From positions 2,368,001 to 2,432,000 of the forward strand of contig CAXXLQ010000004.1 in NCBI GenBank assembly GCA_963668695.2: DNA of 64,000 bases, written 5' to 3'. Position 1 is the first letter of the stretch. Each line of letters starts with the position of its first letter. Below are positions 1,592 through 62,186 of this stretch, piece by piece. This DNA comes from Vicinamibacteria bacterium. GTDB lineage: Bacteria > Acidobacteriota > Vicinamibacteria > Marinacidobacterales > Marinacidobacteraceae. A program made the position numbers and the translations under genes. The notes under the pieces were generated by a model that made no database searches, was not told where the DNA came from, and was given only the letters and a program-made list of their open reading frames with translations.

Positions 1592-1723
1592 CAGCCGGTG
1601 GTGGAACCCGGGTGAGCGCCGCAAAGCGCCAGTTCTCCCGGTGGGGGGGCGGTTCAGGCGGGATGGATCGCCGCTCGAGCCCCCACCGGGAGAACTGGGC
1701 CGCGTGGGTTTCACCACAGGCTG
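1592..1723. mobile_element. MITE family A, internally deleted, carrying two 18-mers
   Basis: Same TIRs and TA flanks; 18-mers at 1629-1646 (-) and 1681-1698 (+). Confidence 0.8.
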
Positions 1724-1864
1724 TTAAGAGCCGGATGTCGGCCACGGGCAGCCTTCGCGCACGAAGGGTGGCCATCCGGATGGTCGGCGTGCCGCCAGGA
1801 CGGCTCTTTCGCGGCAATTGGTAACGGTCCCTTCCTGCGGCGGGTGGCGAAGTAGGATGAAACC

Positions 1865-2827
1865 ATGGAGAAGAAAACGATCAGTCTGATAGGCGTGCCG
1901 CTGGATCTGGGAGCTGGTTGCCGGGGGGTGGACATGGGGCCTTCGGCCATGCGCCGTGCGGGGATCGCCTCGCGCCTGGAGCGACTCGGACATCTGGTAG
2001 AGGACACCGGGAATCTCGACGCGCCGGTGGCGGAGGCGCTCGACGGCCCGGGAGATGCGAGCGCCCGCTACCTGGACGAAGTGGTTCGGGTGCTCGGGGA
2101 CCTCGCCTGGAGGGTCCGGGACATCAGGCGGCGCGGGCGACTGCCACTCGTTCTCGGAGGCGACCATTCCATGGCAGTCGGGACGGTTTCCGGAATGACC
2201 GGATGCGGTGACCCCGCAGCGGGGACCGGCGGACGGACCGAGCGCCTTGGGCTCATCTGGGTGGATGCGCACGCCGACGCCAACACCCCGGAGACGTCGC
2301 CGAGCGGCAACCTGCACGGCATGCCGGTGGCCGCCCTCTTCGGCCGCGGCCCGGACGCTCTTACCCGGGTCGGCGGATTCGCTCCGGGGGCGCCCCGGCT
2401 GGACCCGGAGAACGTCGCTCTCATCGGAGTCCGAAGCGTGGACGAGGCTGAAGCCGGCATGGTGGCGGAACTGGGAGTGCGGGTCTACACCATGGAAGAG
2501 GTGGATCGCCGCGGCTTCGCCGCCATCGCGGACGAGGCCGTTGACCGGGCGCTCGACGGAACCGCAGGGATGCACCTGAGCCTGGACATGGACGGACTCG
2601 ACCCGGAGGTGGCCCCGGGGGTCGGGACTCCCGTTCCCGGCGGGCTTACCTATCGTGAGGCCCATACCCTCATGGAGTGCGTGGCCGCCAGCGGTGGCCT
2701 GCGTTCGATGGAGATCGCCGAGGTGAATCCCACTCTGGACGTGCGAAACCGAACCGCCGAGCTCGCGGTCGAACTGGTCGCCTCCGCGCTGGGCAAGCGG
2801 ACGCTCCCCCCGAACCCGCCTTCCTGA
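1865..2827 (+). CDS. rocF: Arginase
   Basis: GGDHS, DAHADAN, SGNLHGMP, SLDMDGLDP and EVNP motifs. Confidence 0.93.
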   Translation: MEKKTISLIGVPLDLGAGCRGVDMGPSAMRRAGIASRLERLGHLVEDTGNLDAPVAEALDGPGDASARYLDEVVRVLGDLAWRVRDIRRRGRLPLVLGGDHSMAVGTVSGMTGCGDPAAGTGGRTERLGLIWVDAHADANTPETSPSGNLHGMPVAALFGRGPDALTRVGGFAPGAPRLDPENVALIGVRSVDEAEAGMVAELGVRVYTMEEVDRRGFAAIADEAVDRALDGTAGMHLSLDMDGLDPEVAPGVGTPVPGGLTYREAHTLMECVAASGGLRSMEIAEVNPTLDVRNRTAELAVELVASALGKRTLPPNPPS

Positions 2828-2867
2828 GACATGCGCCGCCTGCCTTGGGAACGGACAGGAAGAACCG

Positions 2868-3509
2868 ATGGGCCTTGATGTCCAAACGCACCTTGAAGCC
2901 ACACAGCGCTCCGTGTCGTCGCCGGACCGCGACGGACAACCCGCTTGCGCGGTCACCCTCGCTCGCCGCTACTCGACGACGGTTGAGGATCTGTGGGACG
3001 CCGCGACGAATCCCGAGCGCATTCCGCGCTGGTTCCTGCCGATCGGCGGCGACCTCGAACCAGGCGGCCGATTTCAGTTGGAGGGAAACGCGGGCGGCGT
3101 GATCACGGCGTGCGAACGACTATCCCGGCTGGCGCTCACCTGGGAGTTCGGGGAGGACGTGAGCTGGGTGGACGCGCGTTTCTCGGATGATGGAATGGGC
3201 CGCTCGAGACTTGCGCTCACGCACACGGCGCACGTTTCCGAACACTGGGACGAGTACGGGCCGGGCGCAACCGGTGTCGGGTGGGAGCTGGGTTTGCTGG
3301 GGCTCTCGCTATATCTCGCGAATCCGACGGACCCAAAGCTGGACGAAGCCGCCTTCGCCATTTCCCCGGCGGGCAGAGCGTTCATCACCGGCAGCAGCGA
3401 AAGGTGGGGACAAGCGGCGGTGGCGGCCGGCACGGACCCTCGAGCGGCGCGCGCCGCTGCCAGACGCACAACCGCGTTCTACACCGGCGAATCGGGTGGG
3501 GCTGCCTGA
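2868..3509 (+). CDS. SRPBCC/Aha1-domain protein
   Basis: DLWDAATNPERIPRWF...GGRFQLEGNAGG...GPGATGVGWE. Confidence 0.8.
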   Translation: MGLDVQTHLEATQRSVSSPDRDGQPACAVTLARRYSTTVEDLWDAATNPERIPRWFLPIGGDLEPGGRFQLEGNAGGVITACERLSRLALTWEFGEDVSWVDARFSDDGMGRSRLALTHTAHVSEHWDEYGPGATGVGWELGLLGLSLYLANPTDPKLDEAAFAISPAGRAFITGSSERWGQAAVAAGTDPRAARAAARRTTAFYTGESGGAA

Positions 3510-3512
3510 CCG

Positions 3513-4211
3513 GTGATCCGCGACGCACCCGATGGCAAGGGCGGTTCGGTGAGCGTGGCGGCCCACGACCCGGCCGGCACCTCGCCGGTCGCGCCGGCCG
3601 TCCTCCTCACGCACGGCGCCGGAGGGAATCGGGACACGCCGGGCCTCGTCTCGCTCGCCCAGTCCCTGGCCGTCCGGGGCATCCGTGCGCTCCGCTTCAA
3701 TCTCCCCGCGGCCGAAGCGGGGAAAAGGCGGCCCGACCGTGCCGACCGGGCGATCGCCTGCGTCGCCGCCGTCGTGGGTTGGGCGGCGGGGGAGTACCCG
3801 GGCCCCCTCTTCCTCGGCGGCCGCTCCTTTGGCGGGAGGATGGCCTCCCTCCTGCTCGCGGATCCGGCGGCCGAAGCCCGTAGCCTGGTGACGGGTGCGG
3901 TACTCCTCGCCTATCCGCTGAAGCCTCCCGGGAAGCGCGAAGTGCCTGCGGAGCGGATGGAGCATCTCGGCCGTATCGGCCTCCCGATGCTCTTTGTCAG
4001 CGGATCCCGGGATCCCTTCGCGCCGCCGGAGCTGTTCGACCCGATCATCGCGGCCTGCGGCGCCGAGGCGTGCTGGATCGTCGGGGCCGACCACGGGTTT
4101 CGGGTGCCGAAGCCGATTCTCACCGCCACGGAGCGCAGCGCCGCCGACGTTCGCGACGAGATCGCCGGGGCGGTGGCGGCGTTCATCGCCGCCACCGCGC
4201 TCCCCGGTTAG
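3513..4211 (+). CDS. Alpha/beta hydrolase (KANL3/Tex30-like)
   Basis: HGAGG, GGRSFGGR nucleophile elbow, GSRDPF, GADHGF. Confidence 0.85.
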   Translation: MIRDAPDGKGGSVSVAAHDPAGTSPVAPAVLLTHGAGGNRDTPGLVSLAQSLAVRGIRALRFNLPAAEAGKRRPDRADRAIACVAAVVGWAAGEYPGPLFLGGRSFGGRMASLLLADPAAEARSLVTGAVLLAYPLKPPGKREVPAERMEHLGRIGLPMLFVSGSRDPFAPPELFDPIIAACGAEACWIVGADHGFRVPKPILTATERSAADVRDEIAGAVAAFIAATALPG

Positions 4212-4248
4212 CGGGACCTTGAAGGAAACCCCGCCGCCGGTTCCTTCC

Positions 4249-5631
4249 TCAGCGCGGTCCGAAGACCCAGGACATCCCGATCGTGAAGGTGTTCTGGCTC
4301 TTCGAGATACCTTCTCCGCATCCGGAGCAACTGAAGAAGTCAGCGTCCGACCAGTCACGCCGATACTCGAAGCGAGTCAGGAAGCGGGGGTCGTCCACCA
4401 CCGGCTGGAACTCGAGCGTCAGGGTGTTCTCCATCAACATCTGCTCGAGACCGGTGGAGCGGGCTTCGCGGTCGTTCATGAACTCGTAGCGTTCGGCGAT
4501 CCGCACCCGGTCGTTCACGTGGAAACGGAGGTATCCGCCGAGTCCGTAAGAGGTCGCGCTCGTTCCCACCTCGTCGGTCGCCGAGATGTAGTCCATGTTC
4601 ACCATGGCCTCGACCCGGTCGGTGAGTCCGACGTAGGCGTTCCAGCTCAGATCCCGCAGCCAGCCGTCGTTGGTCCCGGCGTTCTCCGGGCCGTTGATCC
4701 AGGTGAGGGTGGTGTTGAACTGGTCGCTCGGCGCCAGCGATCCCTGCAGGCCGTAGGACTTCCCGGTGTTCTGGTCCCAGGCGTTGTCGAAGCCGTTCAC
4801 CAGCAACAACGTTCCGGTAAAGGTCTCGCTGAGCGGCACGCCGAGCCGGGCGCCGAGATGGGAGAACGGCTCGTTCCACGCCCAGAGGATGCCGCGCGTG
4901 TAGTTCCAGTTCAGATGCGACTCGGCGACCTCGAGCCCGGCGATGGTGCCGAAGAGTCCGACGTCGAGTTGGGCGCCGCTCCCGAACTGGTAGTAGCCGA
5001 ACGCCTGCTGCAGATAGAGCACGTCGGCGAGCGGTCCGGGTTCGAGTCCGTCCCGGAACAGCCGGGCGCCCGAGCCGAACCAGAGGTCGGAACGGAAACC
5101 GAACGGCCCGTCGCCGGCGGTCTCGATCTCCAGCTTGAGCTGGTTCAGGCCGAATCCGCGGGCGTTGGGGTTCGTGTAGTAGAGCGTGTTGTTCCCGTCC
5201 TGAGGGTCGTTCGCATTGTGCGTGTAGTAGGTGTCCACCAGGCCGGTGATGGAGAGGGGTTGCCCTCCCGTACTGGCGACGCCCTCGGGCATTCCCGAAT
5301 CGGCGTCCTGCGCTGGGGTGGACGGGCCCGGGGCCTCGGGGGTGGCAGCGGCTCCGCCGTCTGCGGCCGCGAGCACCAGGCTGGCCTCCGTGGTTTCCGG
5401 GGTCCTGGAGGCACCTTCCGTTTCCCGGGTAGTGACCAGAGTCGCGAGCAGCATCTCGAGGTCCTCGATGCGCTCCTTCAGCGAGTCCAGCTCGCTGCGG
5501 ATCTCGGTCTCGAGTTCCGCGCTGGTGACCGCCGCGCGCGGCGGAGGTTCGCCGGCAGCTACGGCCGCTGGAACAGCAAGCGCGCCGATGAACAGCGCGG
5601 CCGATGCCGCGCGGACAAGTCGTATCTTCAT
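4249..5631 (-). CDS. Outer-membrane beta-barrel porin (BBP2/DUF1597-like) with N-terminal coiled coil
   Basis: SD GAAGGAGG before ATG 5631; signal peptide; LQQAF, GLEVAES, NWNYTRG, EYRRDWSD; C-terminal beta strand. Confidence 0.8.
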   Translation of the reverse strand: MKIRLVRAASAALFIGALAVPAAVAAGEPPPRAAVTSAELETEIRSELDSLKERIEDLEMLLATLVTTRETEGASRTPETTEASLVLAAADGGAAATPEAPGPSTPAQDADSGMPEGVASTGGQPLSITGLVDTYYTHNANDPQDGNNTLYYTNPNARGFGLNQLKLEIETAGDGPFGFRSDLWFGSGARLFRDGLEPGPLADVLYLQQAFGYYQFGSGAQLDVGLFGTIAGLEVAESHLNWNYTRGILWAWNEPFSHLGARLGVPLSETFTGTLLLVNGFDNAWDQNTGKSYGLQGSLAPSDQFNTTLTWINGPENAGTNDGWLRDLSWNAYVGLTDRVEAMVNMDYISATDEVGTSATSYGLGGYLRFHVNDRVRIAERYEFMNDREARSTGLEQMLMENTLTLEFQPVVDDPRFLTRFEYRRDWSDADFFSCSGCGEGISKSQNTFTIGMSWVFGPR

Positions 5632-5714
5632 GATGCCTCCTTCGCCCATCCCGGGCGTTTTCAAGAACGAAAACGGGATCCCCACCCCTGGTCTGGTTCC
5701 GGCGGGCTTCTCGG

Positions 5715-6665
5715 CTAACTCCCGTCCTCCGCGTTTTCGAGCGCGTAGCGCGCGACTTCCTCGTGCGTCGCGTACCAGACATCTCCGGCGGCGTTGATGT
5801 GTTCGATCAGTCGCTCCAGCATGGCGATGCGGGAGCGGTGGCCGATCACGTGGGGATGCATGGTGAGGAGGAACATTCCTCCCTCCGAATGGGCCATGTC
5901 GAATTCCGCCTTCCAGATCGAGAGCACGTCGTCGGGAGTGCTGTGCGGCCTTATCGCCGAATATCTGCTGAAGCCGAAATACGGGGCGTCGTCCAGAATC
6001 CATTCCACCGGCAGTTCCACGATTCCCGTGGCTTCGCCGTTCGCGACGATCTCATAGGGCCAATCGTCCGCCATGAGGCTCGAGTCGTAGAGAAAGCCCA
6101 GGTCCCGGACGATTTGCAGGGTGTTCGGGCTGTAGTCCCAGGACGGCGTCCGCAGGCCAACCGGCCGCGTGCCGGTCAACTCGGTGAGCGTTTCGATCGC
6201 GCGCTCGATGAGCTCGCGTTCCACATCGCCGGGGATGAGCGAGTTGCGTTCGTGAATCCAGCCGTGCACTCCGATCTCGTGTCCGCCGGCGACGATATCC
6301 GCCACGTCCTCGCGGTAGATCAGCGCGCTGACCGCGGGAATGAAGAACGAGGCGCGAATCTCGTGCCTGCTCAGCAGGTCGAGGACTCGCGGCAGCCCGG
6401 CTTTCGACCCGTACTGCCCCCGCGACAGGTTGGACGCGGTGGTGGCGTTGTCCCGGAGCGACACGGTTTCATTGTCGAAGTCGAAGGAAAGGGCTACGGC
6501 TACCCGAGCTCCTCCGGGCCACGACGACGGAGCGAGACGACGTCCGGCGCGTACGGCGTCAATCGGCGCCCGCCACTCGGCCTCGGTCCACTCCCATGGC
6601 GGGGTTTCCGATTCCGCGGTGGGTTCCGCGGGGCTGCAAGCGGCAAGGCACGCGAGCCCGCCCAT
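5715..6665 (-). CDS. Polysaccharide deacetylase (PuuE/PgdA-like) lipoprotein; start uncertain
   Basis: LSFDFD, HEIGVHGWIHE, RTPSW, YDSSLM, TMHPHVIG; lipobox LAAC. Confidence 0.85.
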   Translation of the reverse strand: MGGLACLAACSPAEPTAESETPPWEWTEAEWRAPIDAVRAGRRLAPSSWPGGARVAVALSFDFDNETVSLRDNATTASNLSRGQYGSKAGLPRVLDLLSRHEIRASFFIPAVSALIYREDVADIVAGGHEIGVHGWIHERNSLIPGDVERELIERAIETLTELTGTRPVGLRTPSWDYSPNTLQIVRDLGFLYDSSLMADDWPYEIVANGEATGIVELPVEWILDDAPYFGFSRYSAIRPHSTPDDVLSIWKAEFDMAHSEGGMFLLTMHPHVIGHRSRIAMLERLIEHINAAGDVWYATHEEVARYALENAEDGS

Positions 6666-6739
6666 TAGCAGCCCGTGGTGAAAGCGCCCCGCATAAGCCC
6701 CAGGACGTCCCGCGCGCCGAATCCGGCGCTTCGTGAGCC

Positions 6740-6868
6740 TGCGGGGCGCTTGCCCCACGGGTTCGTGGCGCGAATCGCGGTGCGATTCACACCACCGTCT
6801 TTCGTGGGGAGGGGAAACCCCTCCCCACACCCCGCCCCCGCGGCGCTGCGCGCCGCGAATGGATGCCG
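6740..6868 (-). repeat. Structured repeat family B, copy 1
   Basis: Reverse complement of GGGGTGTGGGGAGGGGTTTCCCCTCCCCACGAAAGA plus a hairpin; homologous to 29183-29309 and 31852-31968. Confidence 0.75.
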
Positions 6869-7009
6869 TCCGAGTTTCACCATTGCCTGTAACGGAGGCA
6901 AGGCGGGACGAACCGGGCATGGCGGCGATTCTATGCGGTACGGGGCCGTCCCACGCCGCTGAAGGACCGACGATCCCCGGGCCGCCGGGAACGATAGAAT
7001 TCGGGATCC

Positions 7010-7594
7010 TTGTCCGCGCCCTACGATCCTTCCGCCCTGAGTGTCAACCTCGCCGCGGTTCCTGCGCGCGGGGCTCGGGTCGCCGTCTCTGCGAACTACG
7101 CAGCGTTCGGCTTTTCCGGCGCCGCATTCGAGATCGTCGGCGAACTCAGCCTGAATGGACGCCTGGACCGACTCGATACGGATGGATACCGGCTCTTGGC
7201 TCGCCTCAGCGGAGAACTGCGACTCGAGTGTGTGCGTTGTCTCGGCCCGGTGGCGCTTCCCGTGGACGAGGCACTCGACCTGGTGTACCTGCCCCGCACT
7301 GCCGCGTCGGCTGACCTGACCGGAGGGGAACGCCCCCTCGACGCGTCGGACATGAACGTGTCGTTCTTCGAGAACGACCGCCTCGAACTCGCCGACACAG
7401 TATGGGAGCAGCTTCATTTGGCTTTGCCGGTGAAGCCGCTCTGTTCCTCCGACTGCCTCGGACTTTGCAGTTCATGCGGCGCCGACCGGAACCGGCAGCC
7501 ATCGTGTGGCTGCGAGGAGAATGCCGGCGCACCCGACCGGGCCGGATTGGGTGCCCTCCGCGACCTGCCGGGATTCCGGCGAGTGCCGGGATAG
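7010..7594 (+). CDS. yceD: DUF177/YceD family protein
   Basis: ECVRCL and LALPVKPLCSSDCLGLCSSCG; sits upstream of rpmF. Confidence 0.85.
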   Translation: MSAPYDPSALSVNLAAVPARGARVAVSANYAAFGFSGAAFEIVGELSLNGRLDRLDTDGYRLLARLSGELRLECVRCLGPVALPVDEALDLVYLPRTAASADLTGGERPLDASDMNVSFFENDRLELADTVWEQLHLALPVKPLCSSDCLGLCSSCGADRNRQPSCGCEENAGAPDRAGLGALRDLPGFRRVPG

Positions 7595-7679
7595 ACGCCG
7601 GGCACCTCGGGCGCCAACCACGGCCGGGCACCCCCAGCCGGCCAAGCACTTCCTGAGAGAAGAGACAGGAGTTAACGAA

Positions 7680-7865
7680 ATGCCACAACCCAAGAGACGC
7701 CACTCGCGTGGCCGCCGGAACAATCGCCGCGCACACCACAGCCTGGAGGCTCCCGGACTTTCGGTCTGCACCGAATGCAACCGGCGCATCCGGCCCCATG
7801 TTGTCTGCCCGCACTGCGGCCACTACAAGGGCAAGAAGGTTCTGGACGTCAAGGACCTGACCTGA
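7680..7865 (+). CDS. rpmF: 50S ribosomal protein L32
   Basis: MPQPKRRHSRGRRNNRRAH...CTEC...PHVVCPHCGHYKG; SD AGGAG. Confidence 0.96.
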   Translation: MPQPKRRHSRGRRNNRRAHHSLEAPGLSVCTECNRRIRPHVVCPHCGHYKGKKVLDVKDLT

Positions 7866-7876
7866 CCTGACCTGAC

Positions 7877-8887: not shown

Positions 8888-9654
8888 TGGTCTCGGCGGC
8901 CCGGGACCCCGGTGAGATTCGCTTCGAGGGGCAGACTGCGCTCGTAACCGGGGGCACCCGCGGGATCGGTCACGCGATCGCCGCGCGGCTCGCCGACGAA
9001 GGAGCCACGGTTTTCCTGACGGGGACCGACGAAAAGCGGGCCGAGGGAGTGGCCGACGAGCTCGACGCCGGCCGCGGCCGGGTACGGGGGCTGGGGCTCG
9101 ATCTGACCGATCCCGAATTGGTCAAACGATGTGTGGCCGCGGCCAGTGCTGACCGGGGACTCCAGATTCTGGTGAACAACGCGGGCGTGTCGCGCGATGG
9201 TCTGCTGGCTCGTCAGTCGGCGGCCACCTGGCGGGAAGTGATGGCCACCAACCTGGATGGTCTGCACGCTTGCTGCCAGGCCGCCGTCCGGCCTATGATG
9301 CGCGCTCGCTACGGTCGGATCGTCAACCTCAGTTCCATCGTGGGGCTTCGTGGCAATCCGGGCCAGACCGCCTACGCGACCTCCAAGGCGGGCATTCTCG
9401 GGTTCACAAAATCGCTGGCCAAGGAATTGGCTCGGCGGAACATCACCGTGAACGCGGTGGCGCCGGGACTTATCGAAACCGACATGACCCGGGAGATGCC
9501 CGAGGCGGCTCGGGCCCAGCTCGGGAGCGCCATCGCAATGGGGCGCCCCGGATCGCCGGAAGAGGTTGCGGCGGCGGTCGCCTTCCTCGCCTCTGCCGAG
9601 GCGAGCTACATCACTGGCGCGGTCCTCGAAGTAACCGGAGGGCTCGCGCTTTAA
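8884..9654 (+). CDS. fabG: 3-oxoacyl-ACP reductase
   Basis: [17 protein letters not shown]; operon context. Confidence 0.93.
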
Positions 9655-11365: not shown

Positions 11366-11372
11366 AGTGGCT

Positions 11373-12583: not shown

Positions 12584-12987
12584 GGAGCGCCGGCCAGTTC
12601 TCCCGGTGGGGGCCTTCAGACCGGCATCGCCCCGCGGAGCGGGGCGAAACTCCCATCCTTACTCACCCGTATCGCCCGGACCCACCCCGGGGACGGCCCC
12701 ATCCCCCTCCACGCAGCGAAGCCTCGCCGCCCATCCTTACGGTTAGCGACAGCGGAAGCGCGTATTCCCAACCGTCCTTATCTCGCCGGGCAGGCCGCCG
12801 CCCTCCCGCCGCCCCATCAAAGGAATCAGCGCTACGCGCTTTCGCCCCGCTCCGCGGGGCGGGGCCGGCCCCCACCGGGAGAACTGGCCAGAGGTCGGCG
12901 TTCCTGGCCGTCTCCGCGGTTCTTCTCGGGGGCGACGGGAGTTTCGCGGCCTGCGGCCGCGATGCCGGTGTGAACACCGGCGCTCCT
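12584..12987. repeat. Cluster of three REP-like family D palindromes, two interrupted by the 18-mer
   Basis: Units like GATGCCGGTNTGAANACCGGCGCTCC at ~12584-12654 (+), ~12840-12905 (-), ~12937-12987 (-); 18-mers at 12594-12611 and 12870-12887. Confidence 0.65.
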
Positions 12988-18900: not shown

Positions 18901-19383
18901 CAGCCGGTGGTGGAACCCGTGTGAGCGCCGAGGCCGGCCAGTTCTCCCGGTGGGGGCGAGGCCCAGTTCTCCCGGTGGGGCCAGTCCTCCCGGTGGGGGC
19001 CCGGCTGACAAGGCGCGTGAGGGAGGAGCCCCCACCGGGAGAACTGGGCCGCGTGTATTCCGACCGAAACGCAACGACGAGCGGCGCGCAGCGACGCGGT
19101 TCAGCCGGGATGGATCGCCGGCCGAGCCCCCACCGGGAGAACTGGGCCGCGTGGGTTCCGCCACCGGTTGTTCAGCCGGGATGGATCGCCGGCCGAGCCC
19201 CCACCGGGAGAACTGGGCCGCGTGGGTTTCATCACCGGCTGTTTGGCCGGGATGGATCGCCGGCCGAGCCCCCACCGGGAGAACTGGGCCGCGTGGGTTT
19301 CATCACCGGTTGTTTGGCCGGGATGGATCGCCGGCCGAGCCCCCACCGGGAGAACTGGGCCGCGTGGGTTTCATCACCGGCTG
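18901..19383. mobile_element. MITE family A with ~8 18-mers and a tandemly amplified ~71-bp terminal segment
   Basis: Left TIR at 18901; about four ~71-bp units between ~19102 and 19383. Confidence 0.8.
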
Positions 19384-32045: not shown

Positions 32046-32224
32046 CAGCCGGTGGACAAAGTCACGCGGCGTTCGAGCGGCGATCCATCCCGGCTGAAAC
32101 ACTCCGCTTCGCGTCGTTCATCGTTGCGCTTCGGTCGAAATACACCAGGTATTCCTCCCTCGCGCGCCTTGTCAGCCGGGCGCCTCGCCGCTCTCGGCGC
32201 TCACGCCACTTTATCCACAGGCTG
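32046..32224. mobile_element. MITE family A (GTGGACAAAGT subfamily), 179 bp, no 18-mer
   Basis: TIRs; TTAG/CTAG flanks; the right flank is the stop codon of the CBS gene. Confidence 0.85.
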
Positions 32225-32662
32225 CTAGCCGCCGATGCCGTCGGCGTTGAAGAAGCTCACCACCGATTCGAGTGCTTCCTTTTCCTCGTCGAGCTTGCAC
32301 TTGAGCACCTGGCGCACGGTCGCCATGCCGACCACCGCGTCGCCGTCCACCACCGGCAGATGCCGAAAGTGATGGGACACCATGACCTCAAGCGCCTGCT
32401 CGAGCGACGTGTCCGGGGTGATGGTGACCGGTTCGGTGGTCATCGCATCCCCGACGGCGGTGGTTTCCGGATCCCGGTGCTGGGCAACCACCCGGGTCAT
32501 GAGGTCGCGCTCGGTAAAGATCCCGGCAAGCGAGCCGTCGGGATTCATGACCGCCGCGGCGCCCACCCGAGCCTTGACCATCGCCTTTACGGTGGCGCAG
32601 ATGGTCTCGCTCGGCGGGACGCAGGTCGCGGGACGGTGGCTGATCTTGAGCAGCGGATCCAT
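32225..32662 (-). CDS. CBS-domain protein
   Basis: GIFTERDL, AMTTEP, FRHLPVV. Confidence 0.9.
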   Translation of the reverse strand: MDPLLKISHRPATCVPPSETICATVKAMVKARVGAAAVMNPDGSLAGIFTERDLMTRVVAQHRDPETTAVGDAMTTEPVTITPDTSLEQALEVMVSHHFRHLPVVDGDAVVGMATVRQVLKCKLDEEKEALESVVSFFNADGIGG

Positions 32663-37684: not shown

Positions 37685-37899
37685 CCACCTGTGAACAAAG
37701 TGACGCGGCGTTCGACCGCCGATGCATCCCGCCTGAACCGCGCCGCTCCGCGGCGCTCATCGTTGCGCTTCGGTCGAAATACGCGCGGTATTCCTCCCTC
37801 GCGCGCCTTGTCAGCCGGGCCCCCACCGGGAGAACTGGCCCCACCGGGAGAACTGGGCCTCGCCGGTCTCGGCGCTCACGCCACTTTGTCCACAGGCTG
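37685..37899. mobile_element. MITE family A with two tandem 18-mers
   Basis: Degenerate left TIR, intact right TIR; 18-mers at 37821-37856. Confidence 0.8.
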
Positions 37900-42086: not shown

Positions 42087-42580
42087 CAGCGGGTGGTGAA
42101 ACCCACGCGGCCCAGTTCTCCCGGCGGGGGCTCGGCCGGCGATCCGCCCGGCTGACAAAGCGCGTGAAGGAGGAGCCCCCACCGGGAGGAACCCTCATGA
42201 TCGGTCCGCCTGCGCACCCCGCCCATCATGAAAAAGGTGGTGCGGCACCCACGCTGACAGGGCACAGAGTTATCGGCGCCAGTTTTCGCGCTCCCACGCG
42301 ATGCCGGCCGGAGGCCGGCGCTCCAAGCCGTCCCCGCGCTTTTTCCGGTAGGGGCTCCCTGACCGGGGGGCTGCGCCTGTTGGGCTACGTGCCGAGAGGC
42401 GCGGCATCACGGAACCGGGAAGCACGCCGTCTCGCCCCGCTGCGCGGGACGGTGCCGGTGTGAAGCCCCCACCGGGAGAACTGGCCGGCGTTCCCGGGCC
42501 AGTGCGCTATCCGGGGTGTCGGCGTCCCCGCGGCCTCATTTTCGCAGCAACTGGGCCGCCTGGGTTTCACCAACGGCGGC
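42087..42580. repeat. Mosaic of MITE A fragments, REP-D copies and 18-mers
   Basis: MITE end directly after the TAG stop; REP-D at ~42281-42325 and ~42432-42495 (18-mer at 42467-42484); MITE-end relic at ~42550-42578. Confidence 0.65.
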
Positions 42581-50771: not shown

Positions 50772-50812
50772 GAACGCCGACCTTCAGCCAGTTCTCCCGG
50801 TGGGGGCCGGCT
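50772..50812. repeat. REP-D hairpin carrying an 18-mer
   Basis: GAACGCCGACCTTCAG[CCAGTTCTCCCGGTGGGG]GCCGGC. Confidence 0.65.
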
Positions 50813-55251: not shown

Positions 55252-55332
55252 CTGCGCGGCGGGGAACTCTACCGGGCTGTGGAGAGACCCGCGCGCTCGT
55301 TTCGCCCGCTCCCGGCGGGCGACGCCGGCTGG

Positions 55333-55894
55333 CTAGCGGCTGGAGGCAGACAGCGTGGGCCAGGCGCCGCGCACGGAGCCCCAGTGGCGAGCGAGCGTCC
55401 GAAATCCATTCGACGACGGATCCGGAGTGGCCGGGTGTCCCTCGGTGTCGAGGTAGAGGCAGCCGACCTCGGCGGCCGGAAGTTCCGCCACGAGCCTTCG
55501 CGCTCGCTCGACTGCCGCCAGCCAACGTCGTTTGAGGACGCCGAGGTCGAGCGGTTTTCGGAGCGCCAGCCGGTCGAGATCCCCCTGGGTATAGGCCGCA
55601 TGCCGCGCCGCCTGCTCCAGCAGGAAGTCCGGGGTAACAGCCTGTGGTGGAACCCGGGTGAGCGCCGAGGCCGGCCAGTTCTCCCGGTGGGGGCGAGGCG
55701 CCCGGCTGACAAGGCGCGTGAGGGAGGAATACCTAGTGTATTTCGACCGAAACGCAACGATGAGCGGCGCGAAGCGACGCGGTTCAGCCGGGATGGATCG
55801 CCGGCCGAGCCCCCACCGGGAGAACTGGGCCGCGTGGGTTTTGCCACAGGCTGATAAGGCGCAGCACCTCCGCCTGGGCGGAACTCAGCGGCAT
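55333..55894 (-). pseudogene. Probable AbiEii-like nucleotidyltransferase gene disrupted by a MITE, centre missing
   Basis: ATG 55894 gives MPLSSAQAEVLRLI; after the MITE, TPDFLLEQAARH...GCLYLD...HWGSVRGAWP ends at a stop at 55333. Confidence 0.5.
55638..55853. mobile_element. MITE family A with two 18-mers
   Basis: TIRs, TA flanks; 18-mers at 55675-55692 and 55811-55828. Confidence 0.85.
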
Positions 55895-56157
55895 AGCCGC
55901 GCCGCGGTGATGAACCCTCTCCGGCCGCCGTGTTGCCGCAGACCCCGGACGATCTCCGGGACGTCGTCGAGGGTGACGGCCAGGTCGGGGCGAAGGTGCC
56001 AGAAGCACTGGGCGTGGAACGTGCGGAACGCTCGCCGGGCCTCGCGGACCCGCACCATGTCGCGGGCTTGGGCGGACGACAGTTTGCGGCGGCTGCGAAC
56101 CCCGCCCTTGCGGCCAATCCGGGAGAAGTACTCCCGGAGCGCGGCGGGCAGGTCCAT
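55885..56157 (-). CDS. Small basic protein, putative antitoxin partner
   Basis: 90 aa, overlaps the start of the downstream gene; palindrome AACATAAGC-G-GCTTACGTT and -10 TAAAAT upstream. Confidence 0.65.
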   Translation of the reverse strand: MDLPAALREYFSRIGRKGGVRSRRKLSSAQARDMVRVREARRAFRTFHAQCFWHLRPDLAVTLDDVPEIVRGLRQHGGRRGFITAARLCR

Positions 56158-56211
56158 GGTGGTATTTTAACATAAGCGGCTTACGTTTCTGCCGGTTGTT
56201 TCAGTCGTTAA

Positions 56212-56427
56212 CAGCCTGTGGTGAAACCCACGTGAGCGCCGAGGTTGGCCAGTTCTCCCGGTGGGGGCGAGGCGCCCGGCTGACAAGGCGCGTGAGGGAG
56301 GAGCCCCCACCGGGAGAACTGGCCCGGGTGTATTTCGACCGAAACGCAACGCAGAACGCAGCGAAGCGGAGTGGTTCAGCCGGGATGGATCGCCGGTCGA
56401 ACGCCGCGTGGGTTTTGCCACAGGCTG
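56212..56427. mobile_element. MITE family A with two 18-mers
   Basis: TIRs; 18-mers at 56249-56266 and 56305-56322. Confidence 0.85.
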
Positions 56428-56429
56428 TT

Positions 56430-56576
56430 CAGGTGGACGCGCCTGCCACGATCGTCGCCAGGATGGACACCCGGCTCGAACGGCTCGAGAACCAGCAGTC
56501 GCGCCTGATCCGGGGCGTCCTCGGGCTGCAGGCCGCGCTTGCGGTGGCCATCATCACGCTCCTGCTCCGGTCCTGA
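56430..56576 (+). pseudogene. Possible C-terminal remnant of a coiled-coil/TM protein
   Basis: RMDTRLERLENQQSRLIRGVLGLQAALAVAIITLLLRS directly after the MITE. Confidence 0.35.
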
Positions 56577-56750
56577 TCCGGGGGACTCTCCCCCGGAGAC
56601 TTTTTCCAGGTCGCGCACTATCCATCCGGGTAGCGGACGCGGTTTCGCGGCCCGGAGGCCGCGATGCCGACCTGGAGGTCGGCGGTTCCTTACGCCAACT
56701 CTGGCCCGCGGTCCCTCCGTAGTCCGTCCCCGTCTCCTAGAATCCCGGCG

Positions 56751-58088
56751 ATGCGTGTCCTGCACCGGAAGCTGCTTGTTGTCGGAGCGGTCGTCCTGGC
56801 GGTCGTTCCGGTGCTGTTCGGGGTCCGGCTCCTCGATCGGATGGCGCTGGCCTATACGACCGGGCTGCGGCGGAGCCCGGACAGCCCGGGCTTCGGGGGC
56901 GTCATGCCGCCGGCCGACGGTCCGCCGCCGGGAGTTGCGTTCATCGGCTTTTCGCGGCCCGCGGAAAGCGGCGAAGGCTTTGTCATGCGGCGGGTCACCG
57001 CCCAGGGCCGGGAGGCGGGACTGCGGGACGGGGACCGGGTCACCGCAGTGGACGGGGTGGTGTATCGCGATGCGCGAGCCGCGATGGGTGGTCTCATCAG
57101 CACCCGGACTGCGGGAGAGACGGTGGAACTCCGGGTCGTGCGAGGAGGATCGGATCGCACGCTTCAACTCCGGCTGTCGCGCTACGTCCGCCATCCCGGC
57201 GACCTCGGACTGCCCTACGAAGAGGTCTCGCTGGCCTCGGGAAGCGGCCACGTCCTTCGGGGCTGGTGGATCCCGCCGCCCGCGGACAGCGACGGGCGGG
57301 CGGTGGTGTGGGTGCACGGCGCCCATTCGTCGCGCTATCAGGCACTCGACCACGGGGCCGAATTCCTGCAGGAGCGGGGCTACGGGATCCTGACGATGGA
57401 TCTCTCCGGCCGCGGCTCGAGCGGCGGCGAATACATCACCTACACCTGGAACGAACGCCACGATGTGCGCTCGGCGGTGCGCTACCTGCGCTCGCGGCCG
57501 GACACCGACGAATCCCGGGTGGTGGTCTTCGGAACTTCGAACGGCGCCGCGTCCGCGATTTATGCCGCCGCCGAACTGGGCGATCTTCCGGCGCTCGCGC
57601 TCGATGCCCCCTACGCCGACCTCTGGCGGGCCGCGGGTTCGATGCTGGAGATGCGGGGAGGGGTGCCGGCGCTCCGCGGGCCGCTCTCGCTCTTCGTCTG
57701 GGCGCGGACGGGTCTCCGCATCCGGGAAGTCCGGCCCATCGAAGTGATCGCCGAGATCCCCGGGCCGGTGCTCTTCCTGCACGGCGACCGCGACCGCCAG
57801 GTGCCCCCGGAGCACAGCCTGGAGCTCCACGAGGCCCGGCTCGCGGCCGGGCTTCCCTCGAGGCGCTGGGTGCTCCCGGGCGGGGAGCACGGCTTCGATG
57901 ACTACCCCCCGCCCGGGATCCTCTGGAATCGGGTCGCCGATTTCTTCGACGATGCGCTCGGCGGCCGCCCGGCGGGCCGGGAACTGGGCGGGCCGGTGCC
58001 CGACACCCTCGACAATCCGCAGTGGACCGGCGGCGCCAACGCTCCAGCGAACGGAACGAACGGAAATGGTCGCGGAGGAGCGCGGTGA
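56751..58088 (+). CDS. Membrane-anchored PDZ + alpha/beta hydrolase
   Basis: AGLRDGDRVTAVDG (PDZ); VHG, GTSNG, HGDRD, GEH. Confidence 0.85.
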   Translation: MRVLHRKLLVVGAVVLAVVPVLFGVRLLDRMALAYTTGLRRSPDSPGFGGVMPPADGPPPGVAFIGFSRPAESGEGFVMRRVTAQGREAGLRDGDRVTAVDGVVYRDARAAMGGLISTRTAGETVELRVVRGGSDRTLQLRLSRYVRHPGDLGLPYEEVSLASGSGHVLRGWWIPPPADSDGRAVVWVHGAHSSRYQALDHGAEFLQERGYGILTMDLSGRGSSGGEYITYTWNERHDVRSAVRYLRSRPDTDESRVVVFGTSNGAASAIYAAAELGDLPALALDAPYADLWRAAGSMLEMRGGVPALRGPLSLFVWARTGLRIREVRPIEVIAEIPGPVLFLHGDRDRQVPPEHSLELHEARLAAGLPSRRWVLPGGEHGFDDYPPPGILWNRVADFFDDALGGRPAGRELGGPVPDTLDNPQWTGGANAPANGTNGNGRGGAR

Positions 58089-60544
58089 CGGGCGGATTCC
58101 GAAACCTCGGCGCCGCCGCGCTGGCCTTGGCGCTGCTTGCCGGCTGCGGGGAACAGGGCGCCCCGCGACCGGCCACCGTCGGACCGGAGTCCGGCTACGA
58201 GGACCTGGCGGCCAGGCTCTCCGATTTCGTCGCCGCCGAAATGGAGCACAAACGAATCCCGGCGCTCGCGCTCGCCCTCACTGACGGAGATCGGATCGTC
58301 TGGGCGCGGGGATTCGGCGAGGCGCAGCCGGGCGTACCCGCGGATGCGGACACTCTCTTCAGGGTGGGTTCGGTTTCGAAGCTCTTCACCGACATCGCGG
58401 TGGTGGCCCGTCAAGCGTCCGGCGAGCTGGATCTCGACGCCGAGGTCTCGGATGTACTACCCGGCTTCGCACCCGCCGGCGTACCGGAGGAGGGCGGAGT
58501 CAGCCTGCGCCGGCTTATGGCGCATCGCGCGGGACTCGTGCGCGAGCCCCCGGTGGGTCACTACTTCGACGACACCGACCCCTCGCTCGCCGCCACTGTC
58601 GAGAGCCTGAACGGCGTTCCGCTCGTCTTCCCTCCGGGCCTGCGGCAGAAGTACTCGAACGCGGGGATCGCGGTGGTGGGGCGCGTGCTGGAGCACGCCG
58701 CGGGGAAGCCCTTTGCCGAGGCGGTGACCGAGGAGGTGCTCGTCCCGCTCGGGCTCGATTCGAGTTCCTTCTCGGTGGCCTCCGCGCCGGCGGAGCGCCT
58801 GGCTCAGGCGTCGATGTGGAGCTACGACGGCCGGGAATTTCCCGCGCCGGATTTTCCGCTCGGAATGGCCCCGGCGGGTTCGATGGTCACCTCGGTCCGC
58901 GATTTGGCCAAGTTCATGACTCTGCTGGCTGGAGGCGAGCTCCCCGGAGTGCTTGACGGGGAGTCGCTCGCAGAGATGTGGCGCGTCCAGTTCCCGGACG
59001 ATCCCCAGGGTCCCGATCCCAGCGGGTTCGGGCTCGGCTTCAACCGGGGCACGCTGGAGGCCCAAAACGCCGCCGGCGAAACCACCTCCTACGCGGTGAT
59101 CGGCCACGGGGGGGCCATCTACGGCTACTCCACCGAACTCGCCTTCCTGCCCGAGGTCGGACTCGGCGCCGTCGTGGTGACGAACGTGGATTTCACGAAT
59201 GCCGTGGCCTCCCGGATCGTCGGGCTCGCGCTCCGGGGGGCGCTCGGCCTCCGTTCGGGAACCGAGGGTGCCGAGGGTGCCGAGGGTGCGCTGCCCCGCT
59301 CCGCGCCGCTGCGCGAGGGGCTGGCGAGGCGGCTTCACGGTTTGTACGAGTCCGGGGAGGGCAGCCGGCTTCGGGTGCTGGCCCGCGGCGACCGCGCCGA
59401 GATGGAAATCGGGAGCGCCACTCTGGAACTTCGCGCCTCGGATACCCCGGGCGTGCTTGTCGCCGACTCGCGGCTGTCCTTCGGTCCCGAAGTCGAGATC
59501 GCCGAAGAGGAGGAGGCCGGACCGGAGGAGGCCGGACCGATCGAATCCCTTCGGATCGGCGAGCGGGAATTCCGCCGCGTCCCCGACCCGCGTCCGCCTC
59601 CCCCGCCGGCGGAGTTCAACCCTCTCCTCGGCGAGTACGGCTGGGATCACAACATTCTCTTCGTCTTCGAGCGCGACGGCGCCCTCACCGTGCTGATCGA
59701 ATGGCTGGAGCGCTACCCGCTCACTGCCGCCACCGAAGACCCGAACCTGTTTCACTTCCCGGACCGGGGCCTCTACCCGGGCGAGTCGCTCCGCTTTCTC
59801 AGGGACGATGACGGGCGGGTGAGGGGAGCGGATCTCTCCGGGATCGTCTTCCCGCGCCGGCCCGGCCCGGGCGAAGGGACCTTCCGCATCGAGCCCCTGC
59901 TACCGGTCTCGGAGCTTCGGCGGCTCGCCGATGACGCGTCTCCGCCGGCTGAGGAAGGCGACTTCCGCGATTCGGATCTCGTCCGGCTCACTGACCTGGA
60001 TTCCACCATTCGGTTGGACGTCCGCTACGCCGGCGACAACAACTTCATGGGGACCGCCTTCTACGAGGTCGCGGACGCCTTCCTGCAGCGTCCCGCGGCC
60101 GAGGCTCTCGCCCGGGCGCACGCCGCGCTCGGAGAGTACGGCTACGGCGTGGTGGCCCACGACGGCTACCGTCCGTGGCGGGTCACGAAGATGTTCTTCG
60201 ACGCCACTCCCGAGCCCCAGCGGATCTTCGTCGCCGATCCCTCTGCGGGGTCCCGGCACAACCGCGGCGCCGCGGTGGACATCGGCCTCTACGACCTCGC
60301 CACCGGCGAGGTGCAGGTCTTCGTCTCGGGTTACGACGAGTTCTCGGAACGCGCCTTCCCCCGCTACGTCGGCGGGACCTCGGAACAGCGCTGGCTTCGG
60401 GAACTGCTCCGCAGGCTCATGGAGCGCGAGGGCTTCGCCGTCTACGAACACGAGTGGTGGCACTTCGACTACGGGGACTGGCAGCGCTACGGCATCGAGA
60501 ACGTTCCGCTCCACCGCATCGGAGTAGCGGACTCCGGGTCGTGA
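58085..60544 (+). CDS. Lipoprotein: beta-lactamase-like serine hydrolase fused to D-Ala-D-Ala dipeptidase (M15D/VanX-like)
   Basis: Lipobox LAGC; SVSK, YSN, HGG; DGYRPW, SRHNRGAAVD, EWWHF. Confidence 0.88.
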   Translation: MTGGFRNLGAAALALALLAGCGEQGAPRPATVGPESGYEDLAARLSDFVAAEMEHKRIPALALALTDGDRIVWARGFGEAQPGVPADADTLFRVGSVSKLFTDIAVVARQASGELDLDAEVSDVLPGFAPAGVPEEGGVSLRRLMAHRAGLVREPPVGHYFDDTDPSLAATVESLNGVPLVFPPGLRQKYSNAGIAVVGRVLEHAAGKPFAEAVTEEVLVPLGLDSSSFSVASAPAERLAQASMWSYDGREFPAPDFPLGMAPAGSMVTSVRDLAKFMTLLAGGELPGVLDGESLAEMWRVQFPDDPQGPDPSGFGLGFNRGTLEAQNAAGETTSYAVIGHGGAIYGYSTELAFLPEVGLGAVVVTNVDFTNAVASRIVGLALRGALGLRSGTEGAEGAEGALPRSAPLREGLARRLHGLYESGEGSRLRVLARGDRAEMEIGSATLELRASDTPGVLVADSRLSFGPEVEIAEEEEAGPEEAGPIESLRIGEREFRRVPDPRPPPPPAEFNPLLGEYGWDHNILFVFERDGALTVLIEWLERYPLTAATEDPNLFHFPDRGLYPGESLRFLRDDDGRVRGADLSGIVFPRRPGPGEGTFRIEPLLPVSELRRLADDASPPAEEGDFRDSDLVRLTDLDSTIRLDVRYAGDNNFMGTAFYEVADAFLQRPAAEALARAHAALGEYGYGVVAHDGYRPWRVTKMFFDATPEPQRIFVADPSAGSRHNRGAAVDIGLYDLATGEVQVFVSGYDEFSERAFPRYVGGTSEQRWLRELLRRLMEREGFAVYEHEWWHFDYGDWQRYGIENVPLHRIGVADSGS

Positions 60545-61266
60545 TTCTCGAACTCCTTTCGCGGGAGGGCCGGGAGGCGGCCCGCATTCGGCGCGCGGCG
60601 AAGACGCTCACCGAGCGGTACGCGCAGCCGGAGCCCCGGATGGACGCTGCCGATCGGCTCGTCCGGATCGGGACCCCCGAGGCGATCTACCAGCTCGCCC
60701 GGCGGTTCGCCATCACCTCCGGGAATCTGGAGCAGGACGATCAGGAAAAGCGCTGGGTCCGTGACCTGCTGATCGAACAGGGCGACCGCGCGGCCGATCC
60801 ACTGCGGCGCTACCTGAGGGGCCACGATGACATCACCTGGGCGATGGACGCCCTCTTGAAGCTCCTGCCAGCCGATGCGTTGGCCGAATTCCTCTTCGAA
60901 GTGCTCCAGGACGGCGACGCGGTGGCCATCCGGGGACCGAAGGCGGTCCAGATCATCGACTTTCTCGCCGGACTCGACACGGAAGGGATTGCCGCGGGGG
61001 TGGCGCGTTGCCTCACGAGCAGCGACGACACGGTGCGGATCGCCGCGGTGGCGGCACTCCGGACGTACGCGGAGCCCGCGACCCGGGAAGCGCTGCTCGA
61101 GGCCGTCGTCTCCGAGGAGGAGGACTCGGTACGCGTCCGGATCGCGATCTCCGAACTCTTTGCCGACCTGGAGTGGGAAATCCGCGGGCACCGTCCCGGA
61201 GTGGAGCGGGTTCTCCCGGATGGCTTCCGGGTCAGCTCTCGCGGCCGGATTCTTCGCGCCGGTTAA
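60541..61266 (+). CDS. HEAT-repeat protein
   Basis: Helical repeats DDTVRIAAVAAL, DSVRVRIAI; 4-bp overlap with the upstream gene. Confidence 0.7.
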   Translation: MILELLSREGREAARIRRAAKTLTERYAQPEPRMDAADRLVRIGTPEAIYQLARRFAITSGNLEQDDQEKRWVRDLLIEQGDRAADPLRRYLRGHDDITWAMDALLKLLPADALAEFLFEVLQDGDAVAIRGPKAVQIIDFLAGLDTEGIAAGVARCLTSSDDTVRIAAVAALRTYAEPATREALLEAVVSEEEDSVRVRIAISELFADLEWEIRGHRPGVERVLPDGFRVSSRGRILRAG

Positions 61267-62186
61267 CAGCCGGTGGTGAAACCCACGCGGCCCAGTTCTC
61301 CCGGTGGGGGCTCGGCCGGCGATCCATCCCGGCCAAACAGCCTGTGATGAAACCCGCGCGGCCCAGTTCTCCCGGTGGGGGCTCGGCCGGCGATCCATCC
61401 CGGCTGAACCGCGCCGCTGCGTGCCGCTCATCGTTGCGTTTCGGTCGAAATACACTCGGGCCAGTTCTCCCGGTGGGGGCTCCTCCCTCACGCGCCTTGT
61501 CAGCCGGACCCCCACCGGGAGAACTGGCCAGCCTCGGCGCTCGCGTGGGTTCCACCACCGGCTGTTCACCGCGTCGCTGCGCGCCGCTCATCGTTGCGTT
61601 TCGGTCGAAATACACCCGGGCCAGTTCTCCCGGTGGGGGCTTCTCCCTCACGCGCCTTGTCAGCCGGGCGCCTCGCCGGCCTCGGCGCTCACGCGGGTTC
61701 CACCACCGGCTGTTCACCGCGTCGCTTCGCGTCGCGCGTCGTTGCGTTTCGGTCGAAATACACCCGGGCCAGTTCTCCCGGTGGGGGCTTCTCCCTCACG
61801 CGCCTTGTCAGCCGGGCCCCCACCGGGAGGACTGGCCCCACCGGGAGAACTGGGCCTCGCCCCCACCGGGAGAACTGGCGGCCTCGGCGCTCACCCGGGT
61901 TTCACCACAGGCGGTTAACAGCCGGTGAACGAAGTCACGCGGCCCAGTTCTCCCGGTGGGGGCTCGGCCGGCGATGCATCCCGGCTGAACTCTCCGCTTC
62001 GCGCCGCGCGTCGTTGCGCTTCGGTCGAAATACACCCGGGCCGGTTCTCCCGGTGGGGGCTCCTCCCTCGCGCGCCTTGTCAGCCGGGCCCCCACCGGGA
62101 GGACTGGCCCCACCGGGAGAACTGGGCCTCGCCCCCACCGGGAGAACTGGCGGCCTCGGCGCTCACGTCACTTCATCCACCGCCGG
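61267..62186. mobile_element. Composite array of MITE A copies and fragments with ~14 18-mers
   Basis: Starts after the TAA stop; internal ~140-160-bp tandem segments; a second element begins after TTAA at ~61919. Confidence 0.8.

Follow-up and report, generated by a model that had tools for sequence, protein, structure and literature searches.

How can a word of only 18 nucleotides come to stand, with the same letters and equally sharp edges, inside several kinds of repeat and inside conserved genes? The question is raised by a stretch of 64,000 nucleotides from a Vicinamibacteria bacterium (GenBank assembly GCA_963668695.2, contig CAXXLQ010000004.1, positions 2,368,001 to 2,432,000), all of which is called the window here, and by the word CCCCACCGGGAGAACTGG, hereafter the 18-mer. 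At up to two mismatches the 18-mer matches the window 35 times, 30 times exactly and 5 times with one mismatch, whereas about 0.01 matches are expected by chance (100 shuffles); a preliminary description of the window had counted about 30 copies. We find that the 18-mer is a discrete inserted unit and not a deletion remnant, and that it ranks with the smallest bacterial mobile elements so far observed. The phenomenon is genuine, and both its extent and its dynamics exceed what was first supposed.

A discrete inserted unit

In the source genome, labeled G000 (4.10 Mb, 67.5% G+C, four contigs, 91.7% complete, estimated contamination 9.3%; G001, G004, G008 and so on are related genomes, with the same labels throughout), the 18-mer is found 1,288 times exactly (79%) and 1,631 times at up to two mismatches. 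The commonest variant, GGAGGACTGG, accounts for 156 copies, and there are 140 tandem doublets and four longer arrays. Contigs C1, C3 and C4 share large near-identical duplicated blocks (C1 and C4:300–420 kb; C4:13–130 kb and C4:3783–3904 kb), which are probably strain or assembly redundancy and because of which the counts are inflated by very roughly 6%, a rough estimate rather than a computed one. Copies use both strands equally and are scattered round the chromosome, with no replication-linked strand bias over eight chromosome segments; an apparent strand bias of the unit in G018 reflects only how its copies were tabulated. Repeated DNA lies on either side of 1,526 of the 1,631 copies, and the two hosts considered below, the miniature inverted-repeat transposable element (MITE) family MITE A and the loops of the two-hairpin element REP-D, are the kind of hairpin-rich repeat that had been described as favored.

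The 18 positions of the unit are fully conserved, and conservation falls off sharply beyond both edges. On the 5′ side, G is found at −2 in 1,120 of 1,287 copies and C at −1 in 1,122 of 1,287, in keeping with the preliminary placement of the insertion just 3′ of GC, and the same bases occur in 39/59 and 43/59 when each sequence context is represented once. A residual preference on the 3′ side is for C or G, then C, C. The working form is usually a block of 19–21 nt: G-C, the 18-mer, then C or G. Terminal inverted repeats and coding capacity are both absent, as had been noted. The lone unit, by inspection, folds into a stem of at most 3 bp and is not palindromic, and in larger folds it sits in loops. 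No duplication is seen at its junctions; each insertion adds 18 or 19 nt net, takes the place of 0–4 target bases and comes with 1–3 donor-like flanking bases. The gain of exactly 18 bp given in the preliminary description is therefore correct at some sites, but at others it is 19. In G000 the 18-mer fills at least 59 distinct contexts (flank clusters, one representative each), 38 of them singletons. This number is a lower bound because single-linkage clustering puts all MITE sites together, in a cluster with about 1,200 members.

The direction of change can be read from three conserved single-copy genes, in which the 18-mer copies are derived insertions. An AcrB-family resistance-nodulation-division (RND) transporter gene of G000 (Pfam ACR_tran, E-value 7e-241), situated outside the window and present twice via assembly duplication, contains the unit in frame, and its product reads ...HGGEPG-PHRENW-RDAAIAG..., with six residues (PHRENW) added. 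Among 27 parsed of 30 returned orthologue loci, the segment measures 58 residues in G000 and its closest relative, G001, and 52 (in one case, 53) in the other 25 (same genus, 14; same family, 8; another family, 3). At the level of DNA, GAGCCCGCG/CGGGAT in G008 (a slash marks the insertion point) compares with GAGCCCGGC(unit)CGGGAT in G000, and the flanks, GC(unit)C, are of the type dominant in G000. In coaBC (dfp), identified by Pfam, the 18-bp unit is present in one of 14 aligned orthologues, that of G010. In mfd, G012 has gained 18 bp, a decayed remnant of 12 bp marks that site in G010, and 12/14 are without either; G007, the nearest to G012 in this stretch, has no unit. The mfd pattern could have come about in three ways: the unit was gained once and later lost precisely, it was gained twice at this site, or it passed between lineages. 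All three gene insertions replaced 2–4 target bases for a net gain of 18, and those of G010 and G012 have the flanks CC(unit)T, which are also the flanks of MITE-borne copies in the same genomes.

The coaBC gene of G000 (L179, C4:2098477–2098917) has an insertion of its own, a G-rich stretch of about 36–39 bp with GGGGGGGAGTC twice, a few codons from the 18-mer site of G010. Because G000 and G010 carry different insertions so near one another, this loop-coding stretch tolerates differing insertions.

These genes qualify two statements of the preliminary description. Nearly all copies are indeed intergenic: when coding-like open frames were called crudely and copies were scored if more than 450 nt inside a frame, only 11 of 1,631 qualified, and just the AcrB-family case was confirmed as coding. 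That copy, recovered by checking for in-frame copies as had been proposed, nonetheless means that "always intergenic" does not hold without exception, and the in-frame copies in three conserved single-copy genes contradict the view that the 18-mer inserts only into other repeats.

The copies in the window lie in MITE A and REP-D contexts, one of them nested within a third, non-coding element, E, which splits an 18-mer. MITE A numbers about 650 copies in G000 and has five main sites for the 18-mer, at consensus columns 67 (L2), 74 (L1), 105 (a), 151 (s151) and 185 (b). Orientation is fixed at each site, and both orientations are used across sites. The features are as follows.

1629–1646, minus strand: exact 18-mer in a MITE A right-arm fragment, gcaaagcg/unit/gggcggttcagg
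1681–1698, plus strand: exact 18-mer at MITE A site b, cgctcgagc/unit/gccgcgtgggttt
12594–12611, minus strand: exact 18-mer in the loop of REP-D hairpin 1
12870–12887, plus strand: exact 18-mer in REP-D context, ggggccggc/unit/ccagaggtcggcgttcc
18938–18955, minus strand: exact 18-mer at MITE A site L2
18963–18998, minus strand: tandem doublet of a canonical unit and a GGAGGACTGG variant at MITE A site L1
19030–19047, plus strand: exact 18-mer at MITE A site a
19128–19358, plus strand: four exact 18-mers (at 19128, 19199, 19270 and 19341) at site b in a 71-bp tandem array of MITE right arms
32100–32232, plus strand: MITE A copy with sites a, L1 and L2 free of the 18-mer (empty reference allele)
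37821–37856, plus strand: two exact units in tandem, MITE A site L1
42112–42129, minus strand: 18-mer with one mismatch in a site-b-type context
42177–42554, plus strand: element E, 378 bp, non-coding, splitting the 18-mer into CCCCACCGGGAGGAA ... AACTGG; left flank of site-a type, right flank of site-b type
42467–42484, plus strand: exact 18-mer in a REP-D hairpin nested within element E
50788–50805, minus strand: exact 18-mer in a REP-D loop; orthologous unit present in G004, split by E in G008
55628–55860, plus strand: MITE A copy 1; L2 filled (55675–55692, minus), a empty (ggaggAATACCTAgtg), b filled (55811–55828, plus)
56208–56470, plus strand: MITE A copy 2; L2 filled (56249–56266, minus), a filled (56305–56322, plus), b empty (cgaAC/gccgcg)
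61292–62150, unstranded: MITE A module array of 14 units, at 61292, 61363, 61461, 61510, 61621, 61769, 61818, 61836, 61861, 61944, 62041, 62090, 62108 and 62133
61660–61690: empty L1/L2 allele inside the 61292–62150 array

Both pairs of empty and filled sites quoted in the preliminary description are real. Within the module array, the empty gcctcgc/cggcctcgg (61669–61684) has a filled counterpart exactly 18 bp longer (61861–61878), and the empty cagccgggc/gcctc at about 32173 is matched by a site filled with two tandem units (37821–37856). The array itself, about 1 kb in G000 (window 61276–62270), corresponds to only 39–50 bp at the matching spot in G004 and G008. In MITE A copy 2 the inverted L2 and a units form a perfect 22-bp stem with a loop of about 34 nt, and the DNA fold of 56225–56345 reaches −39.1 kcal/mol (z = −5.0); G000 holds 148 inverted pairs of 18-mers 49 bp apart. 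Contigs from four public read runs (four studies) cover the unique DNA beside both MITE copies and are broken at the MITEs. Rfam returned no family in the window at gathering score and none at E ≤ 1 around E and REP-D.

Occupancy of MITE A and distribution among genomes

To compare copies, 606 copies of MITE A were aligned with the 18-mer units excised beforehand, and an exact-match screen for empty sites was replaced by an anchor-based scan. The exact-match screen had overlooked unfilled alleles at sites a and b, owing to differences in their flanking bases. At site a, empty A-ATA-CC stands against A-GC(unit)C-CC, always in that form when filled; at site b, empty CGAAC/GCCGCG stands against CGAGC(unit)GCCGCG; and at L2 the gain is mostly 19 and at times 18. 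At site a the 18-mer and the three altered flank positions go together almost without exception (r2 0.96–0.97), and the flank changes without the unit (an AGC/CCC allele) were found in 0/25 genomes with one mismatch allowed. Because the flank changes are tied to the unit and no such allele was found, the exchanged block must be slightly longer than 18 nt, and simple 18-bp excision is below detection.

The sites are filled almost independently of one another. With five sites there are 32 possible patterns of presence and absence, of which 428 complete MITE A copies display 30, and for all 10 site pairs all four combinations exist. L1 and L2, only 7 bp apart, have an occupancy correlation of r = 0.04. 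Single-nucleotide polymorphisms (SNPs) of the host are linked weakly among themselves, and the 18-mer is linked to nearby SNPs more weakly still: mean r2 is 0.035 for unit to SNP versus 0.14 for SNP to SNP at 5–10 bp, and 0.028 versus 0.106 at 10–20 bp. Individual MITE A copies hold 0–5 tandem units and are mosaics of one another, and the family as a whole is a mosaic. Given these combinations and the weak linkage of unit to SNPs, one insertion per site with passive amplification is untenable, and the earlier figure of about nine independent events has to be given up in favor of the 59 or more contexts. In the group of G000, G001, G004 and G008, occupancy per MITE A site ranges from 10 to 55%.

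Comparison between sister species catches some of these changes. The orthologue of MITE A copy 1 in G001, whose right flank is identical for 45 nt, differs from it in occupancy at L2, s151 and b. The center of the copy differs at 1 of about 68 positions (1.5%), whereas the right arm with s151 and b differs at about 10 of 85 (12%), which is the pattern that a conversion tract leaves behind. Of 27 MITE cores in 400 kb of G001, 13 could be placed in G000: at 7 of these loci G000 has no MITE core, at 3 it has several, and 3 are one-to-one. Two of the three one-to-one pairs differ in occupancy, and host identity is 98% for one pair and 86% for one. Overall, 3/4 orthologous MITE copies changed between species whose flanking DNA is 95–99% identical, although numbers are small. 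MITE turnover between sister species is very fast.

MITE A is also older and more widespread than the 18-mer. Two other families of the order have MITE-like matches in 11/16 genomes and the 18-mer in 0/16, and G010 has at least 176 first-look MITE candidates but 6 units. One of those 16 genomes, G033, is flagged as unpublished and enters the zero counts alone. In copies picked by flanking anchors and not by the unit, the unit columns at site a depart from consensus in 0.36% (297 copies) versus 1.2% rare variants in adjacent host columns (Fisher p = 3e-9), and those at site b in 0.16% (249 copies) versus 2.0% (Fisher p = 6e-23). The 18-mer is thus younger or more constrained than its hosts.

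The count in related genomes that the preliminary description had called for places the 18-mer in 21 of 41, and the exact word is common to five genera. All 15 genomes of the same genus as G000 carry it, in 5 to 631 exact copies, as do four further genera of the family (for example, 220 units in G018 and 83 in G009). A scan of the collection matched uncultured Acidobacteriota of the Vicinamibacteria ("Candidatus Marinacidobacterium" and relatives), and stray single matches outside that lineage are compatible with chance; none of the papers in the library searched names "Marinacidobacterium." A variant "dialect" of the 18-mer in family genomes that lack the word was considered and rejected, counts at up to three mismatches being equal to those of a reversed-pattern control. 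In the MITE of another genus, the 18-mer occupies partly different positions than in G000.

Record OZ246946.1, from another genus (L018, L032, L057), contains CCCTACCGGGAGAACCGG, an older and diverged version of the unit, both at site b and in a second position. These forms stand beside canonical 18-mer copies, and a partial 13-nt re-duplication, CCGGGAGAACTGG, follows a full unit. The presence of diverged and canonical units together suggests spread in successive waves.

REP-D loops, element E and the search for an enzyme

The second host, REP-D, offers the 18-mer a loop beside a CCGGC stem. The unit occurs on either side, its orientation is constant relative to the stem, and the loop gains 19 nt, not 18. 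In genomes with few 18-mers, the unit is found mostly in REP-D loops. A regular expression for REP-D proved too loose (5,697 spans, most of them spurious), and usable results come from tight loops of 7–8 nt and 155 filled spans.

Element E makes use of the 18-mer in turn. G000 has about 27 left ends and 33 right ends of this non-coding element, and for 12 of the 27 left ends a partner right end lies no more than 1.5 kb away, at a spacing of 148–378 bp, typically about 227 bp. The borders are CCCCACCGGGAGAA on the left and AACTGG on the right, so that E stands inside the 18-mer at GAGAA/CTGG with AA on both sides. Further copies are located at C4:605105, 2362063 and 2520618 in G000 and at about 5200–5650 of L166 in G008, and REP-D hairpins are often nested within E. 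At one orthologous REP-D site, G000 and G004 have a solo 18-mer and G008 a unit split by E. The core of E is confined to one genus, g1 (13/15 genomes and G000; 0/25 others). Because of the solo units in G000 and G004 against E in G008, and because E is limited to one genus, we read E as a later, target-specific guest of the 18-mer, not its source. No autonomous version of E was found, and right ends at a distance of 7.7–8.3 kb look unrelated. Certain insertion sequences are reported to target repeated palindromes (IS110/IS1111 and REP-targeting types), and E resembles them in standing at one fixed position, with a 2-bp repeat AA. Unlike those insertion sequences, however, E is non-coding, and the comparison concerns E, the guest, rather than the 18-mer. 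Some recombination system reads the 18-mer, as E shows.

A driver enzyme for the 18-mer itself was sought in G000, 91.7% of which is represented in the assembly. There were no candidates for reverse transcriptase (PF00078), although the same search matched 3/14 control genomes, and none for a Y1 HUH transposase (PF01797), with 6/14 controls matched; a TnpB-type search of G000 gave no convincing match. Thus, of the templated, reverse transcriptase- or recombinase-driven insertion that had been proposed, a templated process fits, but the reverse transcriptase and Y1 HUH genes do not appear. One gene for an IS110-family (DEDD) transposase exists (C4:482399–482872, L161). Its element is inserted in a REP-D hairpin loop (gtgccgaccggaggt/IS/...aaggtccggcgttccc), and the ends of that element are unrelated to the 18-mer. 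No high-copy insertion sequence was prominent in the self-comparison of G000, nor was a master copy of the 18-mer found beside an enzyme gene, as the preliminary description had envisaged.

Mechanism and relation to known systems

How, then, does the 18-mer spread? The polarity of block insertion, the variable junctions with co-transfer of flanks, the in situ flipping and mosaicism, and the lack of a reverse transcriptase or HUH gene in the G000 assembly are established by the data above. We lean, tentatively and at rather less than even confidence, toward the reading that the 18-mer is a non-autonomous, very small repeat spread by copy-and-paste of short patches from existing copies. A short patch containing the unit would occasionally be copied to another site, whose similarity to the donor flanks need be no more than a few G+C-rich bases. 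The copying would take place through template switching as DNA is replicated or repaired, or through ectopic gene conversion over a very short tract. Loops beside CCGGC-type stems, as in REP-D, and the inside of the hairpin-forming MITE would be favored targets, and a variable loop-coding stretch of a gene would be a rare one. Inside MITE A and REP-D the unit evidently travels along as its hosts multiply, and frequent short-tract conversion among paralogues evidently shuffles it, so that each site flips largely independently of its neighbors. Occupancy might be raised to the observed range by a bias toward the longer allele or just by growth of filled subfamilies, and no enzyme belonging to the 18-mer would be required. 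A more specific form of copying, quasi-palindrome correction that moves the unit from one MITE arm to the mirror position of the other, was rejected on two grounds: occupancy at L2 shows no correlation with that at b (r = 0.04), and inverted units do not enclose a palindromic sequence.

Several observations weigh against patch copying. The same 18 bases with sharp edges, not random MITE pieces, appear in the 59 or more contexts, which template switching leaves unexplained, and the exact word is common to five genera in which the AcrB segment is only about 79% identical. The unit is about 3-fold (site a) and 13-fold (site b) less diverged than adjacent host columns, which resembles recognition by something. 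For the AcrB insertion a local switch is excluded because the nearest other copies are 4.3 and 8.3 kb away. The flank microhomologies are short for a genome of 67% G+C and may be due to chance, and just three or four de novo events have an orthologue control. Because the choice of word, the sharp edges and the conservation across genera are poorly explained by patch copying, we keep as a strong rival, though we find it the less probable of the two and doubtful in itself, a dedicated trans-acting system that would insert the 18-mer 3′ of GC in single-stranded hairpin loops, with hosts that only amplify it. Such machinery, protein or RNA-guided, would write a fixed word of 18–19 nt into hairpin loops and rarely into genes, and could be a recombinase or transposase, possibly RNA-guided like the IS110 family. 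It would account for an exact word in 21/41 genomes, for the low divergence and sharp edges of the unit, for a G-C/unit/C flank preference that holds over independent contexts and for the constant orientation relative to the REP-D stem; the use of the 18-mer as a specific target by E, and the presence of one IS110-family transposase gene, itself in a REP-D loop, also point this way. Yet neither a reverse transcriptase nor a Y1 HUH gene is present in the G000 assembly, the sole IS110-family gene has ends unrelated to the 18-mer, and no high-copy insertion sequence stands out. Junctions that vary between +18 and +19 with 0–4 target bases replaced, and flanking bases that travel with the unit, are likewise awkward for it, and no transpososome is known to work on a duplex as short as 18 bp.

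The other explanations are considerably weaker. The 18-mer might be a selected signal, such as a DNA-uptake-type sequence or a site bound by a host protein, with ordinary homologous recombination spreading new copies. This would suit a word that is exact and family-wide, copies that use both strands equally and are spread round the chromosome, frequent inverted pairs with strong hairpins, and tolerated in-frame gene copies, but it is unlikely in view of a roughly 200-fold variation in copy number within one genus (5 to 1,288 exact) that follows MITE load, and of copies that arise as block insertions and not by point mutation. We consider it still less probable that the 18-mer represents the joined ends or excision footprint of E, with solo units marking former E sites. 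The two parts of the unit, with AA, do border E even in genomes with few solo units, and most of 15 E copies lie in REP-D loops rather than in MITEs (left flanks read by eye, with no scripted tally). However, the core of E was found in 0/25 genomes outside its genus; G018, G019, G016, G023 and G009 hold 4 left-end-like words in total, though G018 has 220 units and G009 83; and the orthologous site that is solo in G000 and G004 and occupied by E in G008 fits a later E. Least credible of all, and very improbable, is that the 18-mer is ancestral in the repeats and empty sites are deletions, or that it is an assembly or adapter artefact, both of which the preliminary description had named as ways in which its account could fail. 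The exact-match screen did at first give no empty allele for sites a and b, but empty alleles appear when substitutions in the flanks are tolerated, MITE-like elements that lack the unit occur in outgroup families, and orthologue alignments contradict deletion in that the three gene insertions are derived. An artefact is ruled out because the 18-mer is present across many independent assemblies, among them those of the 21 related genomes.

Mobile DNA of less than about 30 nt is known from essentially one earlier description, in Nostocaceae, with a mechanism open since 2008. The small dispersed repeats in question (SDR4, SDR5 and SDR6) are reportedly very short, non-coding and highly uniform, lie inside other repeats and hairpins, and show both empty and filled alleles; their units are said to measure 21–27 nt, to lack terminal repeats and to have no identified enzyme. 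As the preliminary description had proposed, these repeats are the closest known kind to the 18-mer, which, like them, is short, uniform, high in copy number, nested in repeats and hairpins, found in filled and empty alleles and without an identified enzyme. It differs in belonging to another phylum (Acidobacteriota, Vicinamibacteria), in its length of 18–19 nt against the 21–27 nt of the Nostocaceae repeats, and in its sequence, which is probably unrelated. The evidence for the 18-mer also includes orthologue-controlled in-frame insertions in housekeeping genes, flank bases transferred together with the unit and a measured pattern of flipping.

Other short repeats are more distant. According to Bertels and Rainey (2011, PMC3116915), repetitive extragenic palindromic (REP) elements and REPINs are moved by RAYT (Y1 HUH) transposases. 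The 18-mer resembles them in being short, intergenic, present in hundreds to thousands of copies, often paired as inverted hairpins and conserved in a lineage, whereas it is not a palindrome, has no Y1 gene in G000 and inserts as single units. Classical MITEs, as derivatives of DDE insertion sequences, would have terminal inverted repeats and a fixed-length target-site duplication, neither of which the 18-mer has. The 18-mer lacks the defining features of REP/RAYT elements, of retroelement-driven insertion and of classical MITEs. Modular mosaic repeats include BOX of pneumococcus and the bacterial interspersed mosaic elements (BIMEs) of Escherichia coli. These resemble the host MITE, with its variable number of internal modules and mosaic copies. 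The 18-mer differs from such modules in that it is not confined to the MITE, its contexts numbering at least 59 and extending to genes, and in that it takes up five or more MITE positions in both orientations.

Overall, the 18-mer represents a second system of mobile DNA below about 30 nt, probably unrelated to that of Nostocaceae and in another phylum. Its mechanism is made testable by a fixed word, by closely related genomes with 5 to 1,288 exact copies and by clean orthologue-controlled insertions in coaBC, mfd and the RND transporter gene; a host MITE with five near-independent sites and a second element for which the word is the target are also useful. If enzyme-free patch copying with a bias toward the longer allele is true, the 18-mer would clearly exemplify selfish DNA that lives by gene conversion. 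If there is an enzyme, it writes a defined sequence of 18–19 nt into DNA; were that machinery dedicated, the 18-mer would be the smallest autonomous-looking transposition unit known in bacteria and, as the landing pad for E, part of a three-level nest of site-specific mobile DNA. Either way, 18-mer units lengthen proteins by six amino acids and form perfect hairpins of 18–22 bp behind genes.

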